Assembly (NCBI GenBank): GCA_037138755.1
Contig: JBAXHT010000001.1
Coordinates: 31,805 to 95,804 of the forward strand
DNA: 64,000 nucleotides
Reading direction: 5' to 3'
Source of the DNA: Armatimonadota bacterium
Lineage (GTDB): Bacteria; Armatimonadota; Fimbriimonadia; Fimbriimonadales; Fimbriimonadaceae
Below the pieces are notes generated by a model, which made no database searches, was not told the origin of the DNA, and saw only the letters and a program-made list of their open reading frames with translations. The translations under genes and the position numbers were made by a program. Below, piece after piece: positions 47,142 through 53,420 of the stretch. Every line of letters begins with the position of its first letter. The first letter of the stretch is position 1.

Positions 47142-47188
47142 TTGGTTGAAATGCGATAGGCTACGCGTTGGGGCGTAGGAATCTGATC

Positions 47189-48232
47189 ATGGAAACTGGG
47201 ATTGACAGCTTTGCGGCGGTTCACAAGGACCCTTTGGACGGCTCGATATCGTCGGCGGTGGACCGATTGGAGATGCTGCTTGAGGAAATTCAGACCGCGG
47301 ATGAAGTCGGGCTGGACGTTTTTGGAGTTGGCGAGCATCATCGGGCGGAGTTTTTGGACTCGGCTCCGGTGGTGATTCTTGCGGCGGCGGCGGCTCGGAC
47401 GTCGAAGATCAAGCTTACAAGTGCGGTAACTGTGCTCAGTGCTGCCGACCCAGTTCGGGTGTTTCAGGAGTTTGCGACGCTCGACTTGATCTCAAAGGGC
47501 CGCGCTGAGATCGTGGTCGGAAGGGGGTCTTTTGGGGAGGCGTTTCCGCTTTTTGGACTACAGGCCGAGGATTATGATGACCTGTTTACCGAAAAGCTCG
47601 ACCTACTTTTGACTTTGCAAGAAGACGTGAATGTGCATTGGAACGGACGCCACCGTCCAGCGCTGACGGGGCAAGGAGTGTACCCACGGCCATATCAGAA
47701 AGAGATTCCAATCTGGTTGGGAGTTGGCGGGACTCCACAGTCGTTTGTTCGCGCCGGTCTGCTCGGATTGCCGCTGATGGTGGCGATTATTGGCGGCGAA
47801 TTCCGGCGGTTCCGTCCGCTGGTGGATCTGTACCGTCAGGCGTTTCGGGAGTCTGGGCATCCCGAAGAAGGGATGAAAGTCGGAGTGCATGCGTTCGGGT
47901 TTGTGGGTGAGACAACCGAGTTGGCGAAGGACACGTTTTTCCCGGGCTGGTTCCAGATGTTCACAGAGATCGGTCGTGAGCGCGGTTGGCCGCCTCCTTC
48001 GCGTGCGCAGTTTGAGGCGCTTTGCGGCGATAGCGGGGCCTACTTGATCGGCGATCCAGCGAGGGTTGCGGAAAAGGCGTTGGCAGCGAGCGAGGCGTTG
48101 GGCGGGATTCAGCGACTAACGTTCCAAAAGAGCTCTGCTTTGGTTCGACATGAGCAGATGAAGGAGTCGATTCGGCTTTTGGGGAACGAGGTCGCGCCCC
48201 TGGTAAGGGCGAAGTCCGGGCAGGTAGCCTAG
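47189..48232 (+). CDS. LLM-class (luciferase-like) flavin-dependent oxidoreductase
   Basis: GVGEHHR, LTSAVTVLSAADPVRV, GRGSF.E.FPLFG, GVGGTPQS. Start likely ATG 47189. Confidence 0.92.
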   Translation: METGIDSFAAVHKDPLDGSISSAVDRLEMLLEEIQTADEVGLDVFGVGEHHRAEFLDSAPVVILAAAAARTSKIKLTSAVTVLSAADPVRVFQEFATLDLISKGRAEIVVGRGSFGEAFPLFGLQAEDYDDLFTEKLDLLLTLQEDVNVHWNGRHRPALTGQGVYPRPYQKEIPIWLGVGGTPQSFVRAGLLGLPLMVAIIGGEFRRFRPLVDLYRQAFRESGHPEEGMKVGVHAFGFVGETTELAKDTFFPGWFQMFTEIGRERGWPPPSRAQFEALCGDSGAYLIGDPARVAEKALAASEALGGIQRLTFQKSSALVRHEQMKESIRLLGNEVAPLVRAKSGQVA

Positions 48233-48237
48233 GCGCA

Positions 48238-49389
48238 ATGGACCTTCTCACAATTCGGCACGATCTGCACGCTCACCCCCAGATTCGCTTTGAGGAGACC
48301 TATGCGAGCGAGCTGATTCAGCGGGAGCTGTCGGCTCTGGGAATTGAATTCAAAGCTGGATTGGCTAAGGGCACCGGAGTTTTGGGCTATTTGCCCGCGA
48401 CTTCTGATCCAGCGAGCGCCCCGACGATTGCTTTACGTGCCGACATCGACGCACTCCCGATTCACGAGGAGACGGGCAAGCCCTATGCAAGCACGATTCC
48501 GGGCCGGATGCATGCTTGTGGACATGATGGGCACACGACAATCTTGTTGGGGGTTGCTTCCGCTTTGGCAAATCAGGCGGTTCGACCGAATAACGTCTTG
48601 ATGGTTTTTCAGCCCGCCGAGGAAGGTGGGGCCGGGGGAGATTTGATGGTCAAGGACGGTTGCTTGAACGGTTCGCTCCTGGGCAAGAAAGCAGACATGA
48701 TGTTCGGGTTACACGGCTGGACGACCGTGAAGATTGGTCATGTGGCGACGAAAGTTGGGCCGATGATGGCTTCGACAGATGAGTTTTACGTCGAGATGGT
48801 CGGGCAAGGCGGACACGCGGCGGCTCCGGAGAGCACTCGCGATCCGATTGTGGCGATTGCGTCGTTCATCACGACGGTTCAGCAGATTGCTTCGCGGAAC
48901 ACCGAACCGTTCGACAACATCGTCGTGACAGTTGGGCAAGTTCATGGCGGAACCGCGAACAATATTATTCCGATGTCCGCGATGGTTCACGGGACGATTC
49001 GGACGATGAACGCGGAGACTCGGGTGATGGCGAAGAAGCGGCTGGAGCAGGTGGCCCACGGCGTCGCTGCGGCACACGATGTCGAGGCAAAGGTGACCAT
49101 TAATGAAGGGTATCCGGTCGTGGTGAACCACGAAGACGCAGTTGCGCGGTTCGTGACAGTAGCGCGTGGCGTGCTGGGCGAAGACAAAGTCAGCGACAAA
49201 GCCGAGCCGACAATGGGAGGCGAGGATTTCGCTTATTACTCGTCGGAGTGCCCTTGTTGCTTCTACCAGTTGGGTCTGATTCCCGAAGGTGTCGAAGAGA
49301 TTCCAAGCGTGCACACGCCGCACTTTGACTTCAATGATGATGCTCTAGAGATCGGGGTTCGCGTGATGACTGCGTTGGCGTTGTCGTAG
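48238..49389 (+). CDS. M20D family amidohydrolase
   Basis: HAHPQI.FEE, ALRADIDALPI, MHACGHDGH, FQPAEEG, GGHAA.P, MGGEDF, HTPHFDF. Confidence 0.93.
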   Translation: MDLLTIRHDLHAHPQIRFEETYASELIQRELSALGIEFKAGLAKGTGVLGYLPATSDPASAPTIALRADIDALPIHEETGKPYASTIPGRMHACGHDGHTTILLGVASALANQAVRPNNVLMVFQPAEEGGAGGDLMVKDGCLNGSLLGKKADMMFGLHGWTTVKIGHVATKVGPMMASTDEFYVEMVGQGGHAAAPESTRDPIVAIASFITTVQQIASRNTEPFDNIVVTVGQVHGGTANNIIPMSAMVHGTIRTMNAETRVMAKKRLEQVAHGVAAAHDVEAKVTINEGYPVVVNHEDAVARFVTVARGVLGEDKVSDKAEPTMGGEDFAYYSSECPCCFYQLGLIPEGVEEIPSVHTPHFDFNDDALEIGVRVMTALALS

Positions 49390-49419
49390 CCCCGGCGTCC
49401 ACGCCAGGATCCGGAACCC
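49322..49419 (+). repeat. Direct repeat copy 1 (attL-like): amidohydrolase 3' end plus REP-like hairpin
   Basis: 96/98 identical to 51492-51589. The two mismatches are synonymous (AAT/AAC, CGC/CGG). Confidence 0.95.
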
Positions 49420-49656
49420 GGCAGGGACGCGCCAGAGTGTGCAGACTCGAAGCTTCGACAGAGATTATTACGCGGTGAGTAGCGAGCAGATGCTCAACCT
49501 GGAGCCGTCATGTAGAACCTCGAACAGAAAAATCAGATATCAACTACAAATTATTTTGAAGTCTTTTCCAATTTGGTCAGTACTTGGGTTATAATTCACA
49601 ATAGCGACAGCACTATTGAGGAAGCAATATTTGTAACTTGCTTAGAGAATGCACTA

Positions 49657-49899
49657 ATGGATATCCCTCCCAAGTCTGGTTCGATCATTAATCCCAATCC
49701 AATTTTCAAGGTTTTTTTGAGGGCGGTTGGATTATGCGTACTGCTTTTGCTCGGGTTTATCACAGAGAAACGGTTGAACGTTGTTACTGAGTGGAGGTAT
49801 CAGAATCGTGTTAAGTCTGCCGCTTGTGTTGACGATTCGAAGCCTACCGAGAAGGATTTCATGGAGGCACTCCAAAGTAGTGTAAGGAGGCAAAATTGA
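49657..49899 (+). CDS. Possible 80-aa single-TM protein
   Basis: ATG 49657, hydrophobic VFLRAVGLCVLLLLGFI, stop overlaps the next start. It may be spurious. Confidence 0.3.
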   Translation: MDIPPKSGSIINPNPIFKVFLRAVGLCVLLLLGFITEKRLNVVTEWRYQNRVKSAACVDDSKPTEKDFMEALQSSVRRQN

Positions 49900-50483
49900 G
49901 GCGCACTACTGGACTCACTCTGATCGAACTCATCACGGTGATCGCTATCCTCTGCGCTCTTGCGGGACTAGCTTTCTCTTTGACATCCCCAGCCCGCGAA
50001 TCGGCCAAGCAAAGAGCATGTGTAAAGCAGCTGGAACAGATTTTTGTCGGACTTTCACTCTACGCCGCCGACTACGATGCAGAAAGTCTCTATCCAGAAC
50101 TTCACGGCCTATCATACATTGGTATAACTGGCAATACGTTCGCGCCATACGTGAGCAAAGAGCTTTGGTTCTGTCCCGAGGTTCCGCAGCATTTACGCTC
50201 GGGCAGAATTTCAACTTACAGCTCTAGTATTCTAGTAGCTCCCGTAGACAGTAGCGGCAACATTTCGAGTTTTCGCAAAGCTGCCATCAGCATGGAGAAA
50301 CAGCTAGGTACCGATATGTTTGTAGTGGAATGTACCGCTCACGACGAATTATATTACGCCCCGTCAGAACGTTCAGTTGACTTATCGTTAGCCACTCCCC
50401 ATAAGTGCTTGCTCCGCGTAAATGGCTCCGTTTTCTGCGGAAGATACAAACCACCACGAGACTTCATTTTGACCACTCCGTAG
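49896..50483 (+). CDS. Prepilin-type N-terminal cleavage/methylation domain protein
   Basis: G|LTLIELITVIAILCALAGL class III signal with E5, ARESAKQRACVKQL, YAADYD. TAAGGAGG lies 5 nt before the TTG start. Confidence 0.88.
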   Translation: MRRTTGLTLIELITVIAILCALAGLAFSLTSPARESAKQRACVKQLEQIFVGLSLYAADYDAESLYPELHGLSYIGITGNTFAPYVSKELWFCPEVPQHLRSGRISTYSSSILVAPVDSSGNISSFRKAAISMEKQLGTDMFVVECTAHDELYYAPSERSVDLSLATPHKCLLRVNGSVFCGRYKPPRDFILTTP

Positions 50484-50492
50484 GTTAGAACC

Positions 50493-50792
50493 ATGCAAAA
50501 ACTAAAATCACTCTCCCCTATCGCTGCTCTCGCTTTGGGAATCCTGATCGCAGGCTTCAGCACAGCATTGCCGCCAGTTCCATGCAACAAGAGCATGATT
50601 TTCCAGTGCGCTGAAGGATGTGTCCGAACAGAAGGCGGCCAATACAACTGCTGTAGCACGGCAGGCGGCGGATGCTGTGCACGACTATGTCGCCCCATTT
50701 TTTGTAACGGTCAAGGTTGCACCAACGGAAACAATGCTGCTGCGGGGAGCGTTATTCCAGATTCAGTCTGTGCAGACCCAGCCTGTGAATAA
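50493..50792 (+). CDS. Secreted cysteine-rich peptide (12 Cys in about 74 mature residues)
   Basis: Sec signal MQKLKSLSPIAALALGILIAGFSTA. Cys spacing C-x7-C-x3-C-x9-CC-x6-CC-x3-C-x4-C-x4-C-x16-C-x4-C. Confidence 0.75.
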   Translation: MQKLKSLSPIAALALGILIAGFSTALPPVPCNKSMIFQCAEGCVRTEGGQYNCCSTAGGGCCARLCRPIFCNGQGCTNGNNAAAGSVIPDSVCADPACE

Positions 50793-51396
50793 TCGACTTT
50801 CTAAGAGAGCACAGTTTTTAACCCTGGTAAGCATCGTTTTGCTTGCAACACTGGTTACAGTGTTCTTGCGGTGGGGAGATGTTCGTACCCGGAGGCGAAA
50901 CGATGTCACTCGATTTGTTGAATTCGTGAATGCTGGTCGATACACGGAGGCATTTTCACTCACCGATGAATCTTGCCCAGAAGGGATGCTTCGGCTTTCA
51001 CGTCAATCAGCTACGAGAATTTTCGAGTCATATGTACGATCCGCAAAGCAACCACCGCAGTTGCGTGTCGTTAGTATCCTGGAAGGTGAAGGAAACAGTA
51101 GTGATAGGTTCACTGTAAGTGATCCGCATAAACCCACGTCGATGGAGTTGTACATTCGGCGAGATGCATCTGGAAACTGGAATTTTAGCTCCACTGAAAC
51201 GATGTTCCTTCTAGTGTTCTACTGCGGTGAGGATCGCATAGATAGGTTCACAAGACTCCTCGCTGCCCTGGAGCAGAATCAGGAGGGTTGCTTTCCTATG
51301 GTGCAGGGTAGGGTCACAACCCCAGATCGTATCCGAAGATTCCTTTCCGGAGAACTCCCCTCCAACCAAGTCTTCACATACGACTCGTGTCCCTAG
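50785..51396 (+). CDS. Membrane-anchored protein with an NTF2-like/DUF4878-type helix motif
   Basis: GTG 50785 overlaps the peptide stop. N-terminal TM, then FVEFVNAGRYTEAFSL, beta strands and a GNW motif. Confidence 0.6.
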   Translation: MNNRLSKRAQFLTLVSIVLLATLVTVFLRWGDVRTRRRNDVTRFVEFVNAGRYTEAFSLTDESCPEGMLRLSRQSATRIFESYVRSAKQPPQLRVVSILEGEGNSSDRFTVSDPHKPTSMELYIRRDASGNWNFSSTETMFLLVFYCGEDRIDRFTRLLAALEQNQEGCFPMVQGRVTTPDRIRRFLSGELPSNQVFTYDSCP

Positions 51397-51439
51397 TTGT
51401 CACTCTATCGCTCCACAGGGCATGCATTCCTGCTCGATA

Positions 51440-51559
51440 GGCTGTCTGCCTCTTGAGGACGTGGAACCAAGGTCAAGCTTGCATACGCCAGACTTTGACT
51501 TCAACGATGATGCTCTAGAGATCGGGGTTCGGGTGATGACTGCGTTGGCGTTGTCGTAG
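51440..51559 (+). pseudogene. Orphan duplicate of the amidohydrolase C-terminus
   Basis: Reads [39 protein letters not shown], aligning without gaps to [39 protein letters not shown]. Confidence 0.85.
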
Positions 51560-51589
51560 CCCCGGCGTCCACGCCAGGATCCGGAACCC
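51492..51589 (+). repeat. Direct repeat copy 2 (attR-like)
   Basis: 96/98 identical to 49322-49419. Confidence 0.95.
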
Positions 51590-51609
51590 CACGGGGACGC
51601 CGGGGGTAC
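51556..51609. repeat. REPIN-like doublet of inverted REP hairpins
   Basis: GTAGCCCCGGCGTCC (51556-51570) matches the reverse complement of GGACGCCGGGGGTAC (51595-51609) at 14/15. GTAG foot plus the internal palindrome GGCGT-CC-ACGCC. Confidence 0.65.
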
Positions 51610-51623
51610 AATCAGGTTCCCGC

Positions 51624-53420
51624 ATGGATCAATCGCGCATCCGCAATTTCTGCATCATCGCGCATATCGACCACGGCAAGTCCACCCTTGCCGACCGCCT
51701 CATCGAACGATGTGGCGCGATTCGAGGCACCGCTCAGGAGCAGATGCTGGACTCGATGGACATCGAGAGGGAGCGCGGGATTACGATCAAGATGGCGGCA
51801 GTTCGGCTGCTTTACATCGCTAAAGATGGGCTTGAGTACGAGCTGAATCTGATCGACACTCCGGGGCACGTTGACTTCACTTATGAGGTTTCGCGGGCAC
51901 TTGCAGCTTGTGAGGGAGCTTTGTTGGTTGTCGATGCAAGCCAAGGAGTTGAGGCACAGACCATCGCAAACGCAAACATGGCGATGAACCAGAACTTGGA
52001 GATTGTTCCGGTGATCAACAAGATTGACCTTCCTCACGCGGACGTTGAAAGGGCGCGGGAAGAGATTGAGATGGCGGTTGCAGTGGATGCGACCGACGCG
52101 ATTCCGTGCTCGGCTAAGGCAGGAATTGGAATTGATGAGATTTTGGAGGCGATTGTCGCCCGGATTCCGCCGCCAGATGGTCGGGACGACAAGCCGCTTC
52201 GGGCCTTGATTTACGATTCCCACTTCGACGCCTACCAGGGCGCGGTGGCCTACGTTCGGGTTCGCGACGGAGCGGTCAAGAAGGGCGATGTCATCAAGAT
52301 GATGAACACCGGATCGACGTTCGTGGTCGATTCAACCGGCCACTTCGGGCCGGGTTTGCAGGTCAATGACGGGATTTTCACTGGAGAAGTTGGTTACATT
52401 ACCGCAGCGATGAAGTCGATTGGCGACGCCCAGGTGGGCGACACGGTCACAACTCGCGATGAAGGTGCTTCGGAACCTCTGCCGGGTTACCGGAAAGCTC
52501 TGTCAATGGTCTTCTGCGGCCTTTACCCGTCGGACGGGGATCAGTACGAAGACCTCCGGGATGCGATTGCGAAGCTCCAACTGAACGACGCCTCGCTGCA
52601 ATTTGAACCCGAAACATCGGCCGCGCTCGGGTTCGGGTTCCGCTGCGGATTCCTTGGCTTGCTGCACATGGACATCGCTCGCGAGCGGCTAGAGCGCGAG
52701 TTCAATCTCGACCTCATTCTCACCGCGCCAAGCGTGGACTACATCGTTCATAAGAAGAACGGCGACGTTGAGCACATCTCGAACCCCAGCGAATTTCCGG
52801 ACGCGAACGAGATTTTGGCGATCGAGGAGCCGACGGTTAAGGCGACGATCATGGTGCCCAACGAGTACGTTGGCGCGGTGATGACGCTTTGCCAAGAAAG
52901 GCGCGGGATCTATACTAAGACGGAGTACCCGACTCCCCAACGCGTGATCTTGTACTACACGCTTCCGATGGGCGAGATCTTGCTCGACTTCTTCGATAAG
53001 CTGAAGTCGAACACTCGCGGCTACGCCTCTTTCGACTATGATCCAGACGAGTACACGGCTTCGGAGTTGGTGAAGCTTGATATCCTTTTGAACGGCGATA
53101 TTGTCGACGCTCTTTCGTTCATTGTTCATAAGTCCTTCTCGTACAACCGGGGACGCGCGGTGGTCGAACAGCTTCGAAAAGTCGTTCCTCGCCAGCAGTT
53201 CGAAGTCCGAGTTCAGGCGGCGATCGGGGCGAAAGTGATTGCAGCGGACACCATTAAGCCGTTCCGAAAGAACGTCATTGCCAAGTGCTACGGCGGCGAC
53301 ATTTCGCGTAAGCGCAAGCTTCTCGAGAAGCAGAAAGAAGGTAAGAAACGCATGAAGCAAATCGGCTCGGTTGAGCTTCCTCAGGAAGCGTTCCTTAGCG
53401 TTCTGAAGGTTGCAGAGTAG
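51624..53420 (+). CDS. lepA: Translation elongation factor 4 (LepA)
   Basis: [81 protein letters not shown]. Confidence 0.98.

Follow-up and report, generated by a model that had tools for sequence, protein, structure and literature searches.

A four-gene islet without a recombinase between a duplicated amidohydrolase gene end and lepA in a Fimbriimonadaceae genome

How does a block of foreign-looking DNA that encodes no recombinase come to lie between two bacterial genes, with the end of the upstream gene repeated at its far side? The question is raised by a 64,000-nucleotide stretch of DNA, here called the window, from the Armatimonadota bacterium assembly GCA_037138755.1 (contig JBAXHT010000001.1, positions 31,805 to 95,804), a metagenome-assembled genome (MAG) of the family Fimbriimonadaceae that comprises 3.27 Mb in 20 contigs. 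We refer to this source genome as G000 and to the window as G000:C1:31805-95804. In the window, an islet of four small genes separates ami, which encodes an M20/M25/M40 amidohydrolase, from lepA, which encodes the EF4 GTPase. We favor the explanation that a horizontally acquired, non-autonomous four-gene operon was inserted into the ami-lepA spacer by one reciprocal (Campbell-type) crossover, and put the probability of this reading at about one half.

The islet is a genuine scar left by insertion at the end of a gene, and it belongs to a known general kind: integrase-less islets with repeats resembling attL and attR. It reveals no new mechanism, and its value is that of one data point on integrase-less islets with long flanking duplications. 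It offers a clean natural case of a small recombinase-less cassette behind a housekeeping gene, with the empty site in a sister species. The locus also introduces a cassette family that occupies the ami end in a second lineage and, in another genus, a different locus, and it documents both a conserved three-gene module and a small system of repetitive extragenic palindromic (REP) doublets.

The islet and its flanking duplication

In the nearest species-level genome, G002, lux (a luciferase-like monooxygenase gene), ami and lepA occur in the same order, the ami-lepA spacer is 30 bp long, and both the islet and the palindrome at its borders are missing. Given this spacer, the islet is an insertion, and the empty-site allele that the first-pass annotation had proposed to look for in relatives does exist. 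G000 and G002 are 92% identical in the Ami protein and 99% in LepA, with nucleotide identity of about 80%. In more distant members of the genus, lepA does not lie within 1.5 kb of ami. None of the other 45 genomes of the genus contains the islet DNA. Of the 227 other genomes of the order, 226 lack its last gene, o4; the sole match is in G082, an uncultured Fimbriimonadaceae bacterium of the same family and another genus.

The islet is bounded by a direct repeat whose core (49322-49419 and 51492-51589) is identical at 96 of 98 bases, in register at an offset of 2170 nt. Both mismatches are synonymous, as had been noted from the sequence: 49336 T/C turns AAT into AAC (Asn), and 49355 C/G turns CGC into CGG (Arg). 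Translation of either copy gives the same 21 residues and then a stop. The reported extent of the repeat, from the last 22 ami codons into a GTAG-footed hairpin that contains the TAG stop, was also reproduced: ami has its last 22 codons and stop inside copy 1, with the TAG at 49387-49389 lying within the GTAG that forms the foot of the palindrome.

Beyond the core, we found that the full duplication measures 157 nt and falls into three zones. The left zone (49274-49321 and 51444-51491) matches at 30 of 48 positions (62%), against a background of 12.2 of 48 and a maximum of 24 over 545 other offsets (P ~7e-8), and the right zone (49420-49430) matches at 8 of 11 positions, with background levels beyond it. 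The earlier description of a 2.17-kb islet is right as to the period of the repeat, which is 2170 nt, but the unique insert between the copies is 2013 nt long and the duplication is 157 nt rather than 98. Its claim that diverged ami coding sequence continues upstream of copy 2 is borne out by the significant match in the left zone, but this stretch is short, at 48 nt, and further upstream the match is at background. Upstream of 51444, ami homology likewise failed to reach significance in a profile test, so the ami remnant in copy 2 is only about 38 codons long. In total the repeat holds the last 22-38 ami codons, that is, 66-114 nt of coding sequence upstream of the REP sequence. The displaced fragment at 51444-51559 was recovered by tblastn, and ami itself has its full 383 aa and aligns with its orthologues from end to end.

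The differences between the copies are unevenly spread. The central 98 nt account for only 2 of the 23 copy-to-copy differences (P = 1.2e-7); of the 20 differences in 146 nt of the repeat, 18 lie in the left 48 nt (P = 1.8e-7). The two zones of the repeat therefore have different histories, and the even decay expected of a plain target-site duplication that began as identical copies is not what we observe. The diverged 48 nt of copy 2 find their best match in the ami of G000 itself (30/48), followed by that of G002 (28/48), and no relative comes closer. The proposal that the islet brought an attP carrying a foreign allele of the gene end is one way to explain these 48 nt, but a clearly foreign ami allele is not supported by these matches. 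An abrupt fall in G000-G002 identity at the 3' end of ami, which would mark a replaced end, was not seen either (73-80% there against 80% overall).

Between the repeats the DNA is foreign-looking by composition. The insert has a GC content of 48.3%, compared with 54.3 +/- 2.0% in 2-kb windows of the genome, which places it among the lowest 1.1%. GC content at third codon positions (GC3) is 46-50% in the four islet genes and 65-69% in neighbouring genes. These values answer the first-pass annotation's suggestion of a GC and codon-usage profile. The four open reading frames (ORFs) of the islet are tightly packed and co-directional, and the cargo consists of four small surface or secreted-protein genes. 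Scans of these ORFs with Pfam, NCBIfam and PHROGs found no integrase or transfer genes. The statement that no recombinase gene is present also held at larger scale, as we found no tyrosine or serine recombinase and no Y1 transposase in the islet or in the whole window. A fold search with o4 gave weak NTF2-like matches (best E = 6e-3; model pLDDT, the predicted local distance difference test, 71). Scans of the islet region for Rfam families, tRNAs, promoters and terminators returned no matches. The coordinates of the islet, its repeats and its neighbours are collected in Table 1.

Table 1. Features of the ami-lepA region, in window coordinates.
Feature	Position	Strand	Details
lux, luciferase-like monooxygenase gene	47168-48232		
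ami, M20/M25/M40 amidohydrolase gene, intact, 383 aa	48238-49389	+	Peptidase_M20 3.8e-43, M20_dimer, TIGR01891 amidohydrolase 1.6e-100
Repeat copy 1 (attL-like)	49274-49430	+	Zones: 49274-49321 (62%), core 49322-49419 (98%), 49420-49430 (8/11)
REP left arm and loop of copy 1, deviant right arm, no stable hairpin	49386-49430	+	-9.8 kcal/mol, z = +0.5, no better than shuffles
AT-rich leader of the islet, 41-45% GC	49431-49656	+	No consensus sigma-70 promoter found
o1, small predicted membrane protein, 80 aa	49657-49899	+	From ATG 49657, ORF open from TTG 49573; 42% identical homologue in L027
Prepilin-type pseudopilin-like protein, 195 aa	49896-50483	+	N_methyl / TIGR02532 (N-terminal methylation motif); start overlaps o1 stop
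Secreted 99-aa protein, signal peptide, 12 invariant cysteines	50493-50792	+	Cysteines from alignment of homologues
o4, membrane-anchored protein, 203 aa	50785-51396	+	GTG start overlaps stop of the Cys-rich gene
Repeat copy 2 (attR-like)	51444-51600	+	Displaced non-functional ami 3' fragment 51444-51559 plus REPIN left half; core 51492-51589
Complete REPIN, two inverted REP arms	51556-51609	+	Arms 51556-51582 and 51583-51609; diverged family member
lepA (EF4 GTPase)	51624-53420	+	Protein 99% identical to G002 orthologue

The public runs that contain the islet-region sequence are freshwater metagenomes. One 196-nt metatranscriptome contig (run X4) is identical to 50640-50835, which runs from the last part of the Cys-rich gene into the first part of o4, and hints that the cargo is transcribed in the lake.

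The palindrome at the islet borders

The first-pass annotation described a full inverted REP doublet in copy 2 and a damaged one in copy 1, and predicted folding energies agree (-21.5 against -9.8 kcal/mol). The copy 2 fold has z = -4.4. The palindrome is not an integron attC site: attC needs RYYYAAC ... GTTRRRY, and the palindrome arms start with GTAGCCCC, end with GGGGGTAC and hold no GTTRRRY box.

Further REP copies and a gene for a REP-associated tyrosine transposase (RAYT) had been proposed as targets of a genome search, and both are present. We found a family of inverted REP doublets (REPINs) in G000, approximately GGTAyCCCCGGCGTCTCGCCGGG-loop-CCCGGCGAGACGCCGGGGrTACC, at about 10 sites that include full doublets and single arms. 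With the arm pattern CCCGGCGTCTCGCCGGG and at most one mismatch there are 13 matches in G000 and none in G002, and the other 24 relatives give stray one-mismatch matches (two in G001, one each in G025 and G029), about as many as a control with the pattern read backwards. By this search, the family appears small and confined to G000 among the relatives examined. Further sites lie at C3:227246, C2:50906, C2:6841, C1:1638897, C1:1751171, C1:535472 and C1:1325774.

The RAYT gene occupies G000:C1:1833150-1833850 and has REP arms on both sides (NF047646 REP_Tyr_transpos, 82.3 bits at a cut-off of 80; Y1_Tnp, 43.4 bits). Its reading frame continues, without a stop, from that of the prmC gene (release-factor methyltransferase) upstream, with a REP arm in between; together they form a 505-aa ORF (G000:C1:1832279-1833796; 265-1782 in L021) that may be a true fusion or merely the result of a missing stop.

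The family and its RAYT agree with what has been published on REPINs and RAYTs (Bertels and Rainey 2011, PMC3116915; PMC3337134). Shared with those systems are the inverted doublet at 51556-51609, the multi-copy family and the single REP-flanked RAYT gene. The G000 system differs in its unusually low copy number and in its host, a member of the Fimbriimonadaceae in the phylum Armatimonadota. A further difference is that REPINs move only themselves, and here we saw no sign of cargo being carried. The repeat contains half a REPIN and the REPIN is absent in G002; the near-identical core was therefore made after the REPIN arrived in the lineage. In our reading the REPIN is part of the duplicated target and not the engine of the insertion.

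Related cassettes

We identified homologues of the pilin-like protein at 99%, 78%, 53%, 42% and 40% identity. Contig L029, from another assembly, is 99.8% identical to 49636-50534. A metagenome contig of 1542 nt, L027 (European Nucleotide Archive ERZ27280194:k141_411889), carries homologues of all four genes, with amino acid identities of 42% (o1), 77% (pilin-like), 53% (Cys-rich) and 50% (o4), and its pilin-like gene has about 70% nucleotide identity to that of the islet. The first 39 nt of L027 are the end of an ami gene; the cassette stands directly behind, and no REP sequence follows. This ami ends in ...ALEIGVKVMTALATARI before its stop (...MTALATARI) where the usual ending in the genus is ...MTALALS, a departure two codons before the stop, and the cassette junction seems to lie inside the last two ami codons. 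By these sequence comparisons, a second lineage carries a diverged cassette behind ami with another left junction. Because the L027 cassette adjoins an ami end, donors that link the cassette to ami sequence exist.

Other members of the family stand in other contexts. In G082 a three-gene module of low GC content lies between rpsI and a major facilitator superfamily (MFS) transporter gene; in G079, of the same genus as G082, rplM, rpsI and the MFS gene are adjacent. Further members are L028/L035, L046 and L047, and an o4 fragment from a search of representative sequences belongs to the L028 type and not the L027 type. The module consists of a prepilin-type protein, a 12-Cys secreted protein that some copies lack, and a protein of about 205 aa with a membrane anchor, and it is always low in GC. 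It spans 49896-51396 in the window, 5863-7379 in L032, 441-1540 in L027, 387-2077 in L028 and 5378-6612 in L047. From these occurrences the module appears to be a sparse, sporadically placed family.

The first-pass annotation had called the ami-lepA junction an insertion hotspot. The islet is indeed an insertion, and the ami-linked cassette of L027 fits a recurrently used site, but common descent explains that cassette equally well and another site of the family lacks repeats.

How the islet may have arrived

In the explanation that we favor, the chromosomal partner of the crossover would have been the ami end together with the left half of the REPIN, and the other partner a similar segment on incoming DNA that was circular or had been circularised. 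A crossover between them would flank the islet with two directly repeated copies of the shared segment, in the manner of attL and attR, would keep ami intact and would displace a dead ami end to the lepA side. We infer the circular intermediate, the single crossover and the enzyme from this arrangement. Since the islet encodes no recombinase, the enzyme of the crossover would have come from outside it: the RecA of the host, using about 100 bp of identity, or a tyrosine or serine recombinase whose gene lies elsewhere. We place RecA somewhat ahead as the agent. If a recombinase acted in trans, the islet would resemble a cis-mobilizable element (CIME) whose integrase was lost and whose att sites were kept. 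The uneven divergence of the repeat suggests that an older, incoming ami-like segment was joined to a recent core, and fits this better than a plain 157-nt target duplication; the incoming DNA would have carried its own older ami-like stretch beside a core recently shared with the G000 lineage.

Several observations weigh against this reading. A lone donor allele would have to match at 62% to one side of a point and at 98% to the other. This calls for a further event, which may have been an earlier stay of the element in the lineage or gene conversion between the copies. Apart from the two repeats, G000 contains no third copy of the 98-nt core and no further copy of the islet, and an exact search with a 29-nt core sequence in two public collections, one of genome contigs and one of metagenome contigs, gave no match. 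The right junction of the L027 type was not recovered; it is absent from the contig, and no homologue turned up when the C-terminal half of o4 was used as the query. The G082 cassette lies at a site other than the ami end and has no direct repeats at its borders, so specificity for the ami end does not extend to the entire family. No integrase was detected next to the cassettes of L027, L028, G082 or L047. Finally, the 31-mer graph of Logan, a loop, fits a chromosomal islet as well as it fits an empty site plus a 2.17-kb circle.

The alternative that survives best, which we still consider unlikely, is an old resident cassette. The cassette would have stood behind ami in a common ancestor with the L027 lineage, next to an ancient duplication of the ami end whose lepA-side copy decayed, and conversion or a second recombination after the REPIN arrived would have rehomogenised the central 98 nt. 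This would explain why L027 has a homologous, well-diverged cassette at the same gene end. The 38% divergence of the 48-nt zone is of about the order of the G000-G002 split (27% over the same stretch), and identity declines toward both edges of the repeat, as it does in repeats maintained by conversion. However, the left junctions differ, that of L027 lying two codons before the normal stop and having no REP, and conversion would hardly bring half a REPIN into copy 1 with no homology beyond it. An old cassette would also have to be lost cleanly from G002, which lacks the REPIN as well, and over such a time a 98-nt direct repeat 2 kb apart should often delete.

A one-off illegitimate insertion is less probable still. 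Foreign DNA would have entered a staggered break at the REP hairpin, with fill-in duplicating about 100-157 nt of target, an event of double illegitimate recombination in the course of DNA uptake. The repeat does have its right edge inside the REPIN, hairpins can stall forks and break, and the islet has neither a recombinase nor terminal inverted repeats. Such a duplication should decay evenly, which conflicts with the concentration of 18 of 20 differences in its left third, and if the 98 nt alone were duplicated the ami-like 48 nt would be a coincidence (P ~7e-8). A more general version of this idea, which we rate a little lower again, is a regular integrase-independent route of capture. Here REP or REPIN hairpins near gene ends would break and long staggers would be filled, taking up about 2 kb of foreign DNA, or a trans-acting recombinase specific for the ami-end/REP segment would serve a family of pilin-like cassettes that lack a recombinase of their own. 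In G000, support for a regular REP-associated route is limited to the ami-lepA locus.

REP/RAYT-linked mobilisation, one of the routes offered by the first-pass annotation, is very improbable. A Y1 HUH transposase would cut at two REPs and move the intervening DNA as a REP-bounded unit. REP sequence does stand at both ends of the islet in the same orientation, and G000 has its REP-flanked RAYT gene and a REPIN family seen in no other relative searched. To our knowledge, the ends on which the IS200/IS605 transposase TnpA and E. coli TnpA_REP work are hairpins, and no target sequence is duplicated in the process. A unit of the IS200/IS605 type or one mobilised by a RAYT should accordingly have hairpin-defined ends and no duplicated target, unlike the islet, whose repeat directly duplicates 98-157 nt, among them 66-114 nt of coding sequence, and whose copy 1 forms no stable hairpin. 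A check of flanking GC content found no low-GC islet beside any of the other ten REP sites in G000, and no REPs stand at the cassette junctions of L027 and G082.

Least probable is an assembly error in which an empty ami-REPIN-lepA chromosome and a separate 2.17-kb circle were joined through a shared 64-nt stretch: the Logan islet contig (run X1) is indeed separate, 2173 nt long with ends that overlap the repeat, and read depth is 30.6 in the islet, 25.8 and 23.3 in the flanks and 41 in the collapsed 57-nt repeat, but the unit encodes no replication protein or recombinase and is therefore unlikely to exist as a free circle at about 1.25 copies per chromosome, GC bias could account for the higher depth, and the window lies within a 2.0-Mb contig of a 20-contig assembly. 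In run X1 the Logan assembly is interrupted at the repeat: one contig ends at 49392, the islet contig covers 49390-51562 and the next starts at 51560. Both SNP-marked copies of the repeat (marked by single-nucleotide differences) are present in the reads. Chromosomal integration of the islet is not proven, as short-read contigs alone cannot confirm it. The islet depth of about 1.25 times that of the flanks could reflect GC bias, extra copies or carriage by another strain.

The insertion by a single crossover that we favor has counterparts among known systems. Integrative elements at gene 3' ends, and decayed integrase-less CIMEs, show a repeat, an intact target and a displaced end fragment (PMC5704250). 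The islet is like a CIME in being small, in standing at the 3' end of a housekeeping gene between direct repeats that contain the gene end, in having no integrase and in leaving its target intact. It differs in that we found no related autonomous element and no integrase using the same att site in G000, in the two public collections or beside the related cassettes, and in that one flank of its repeat is diverged and the repeat stops within a REPIN.

Phage 21 and the cryptic prophage e14 insert in the 3' end of icd in E. coli, with an integrase that adjoins the att site. As at the islet, the target gene there is functional through a second copy of its end, and a pseudo-fragment lies at the other side of the insert. 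Unlike these elements, the islet has no integrase beside it, and its diverged homology is on the gene-proximal side of the near-identical core, whereas in icd it is gene-distal of the crossover.

Integrase-less islets at recombination hot spots between core genes spread by homologous recombination in their flanks. The ami-lepA islet resembles them in its strain- or species-specific, fast-evolving, low-GC cargo between conserved neighbours and in the empty site of a relative; it differs in its long duplication at the insertion site, which hot-spot islets usually lack.

As for enzymes able to act in trans, G000 has 8 matches to tyrosine recombinases that exceed the family cut-off, along with 2 large serine recombinases. 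The genome also contains likely integrated elements of 40 kb (C1:313572-313632 / 353558-353618), 15 kb (C3:233236-233307 / 248327-248398) and 45 kb (C1:1211507-1211562 / 1256176-1256231), bounded by direct repeats of 56-72 nt and with tyrosine integrase genes adjoining or inside them. Contig C7 of G000, 23,085 nt long, has an identical 55-nt overlap at its ends, a GC content of 50.6% and a tyrosine recombinase gene, and is probably a circular plasmid or phage genome that was binned with the MAG.

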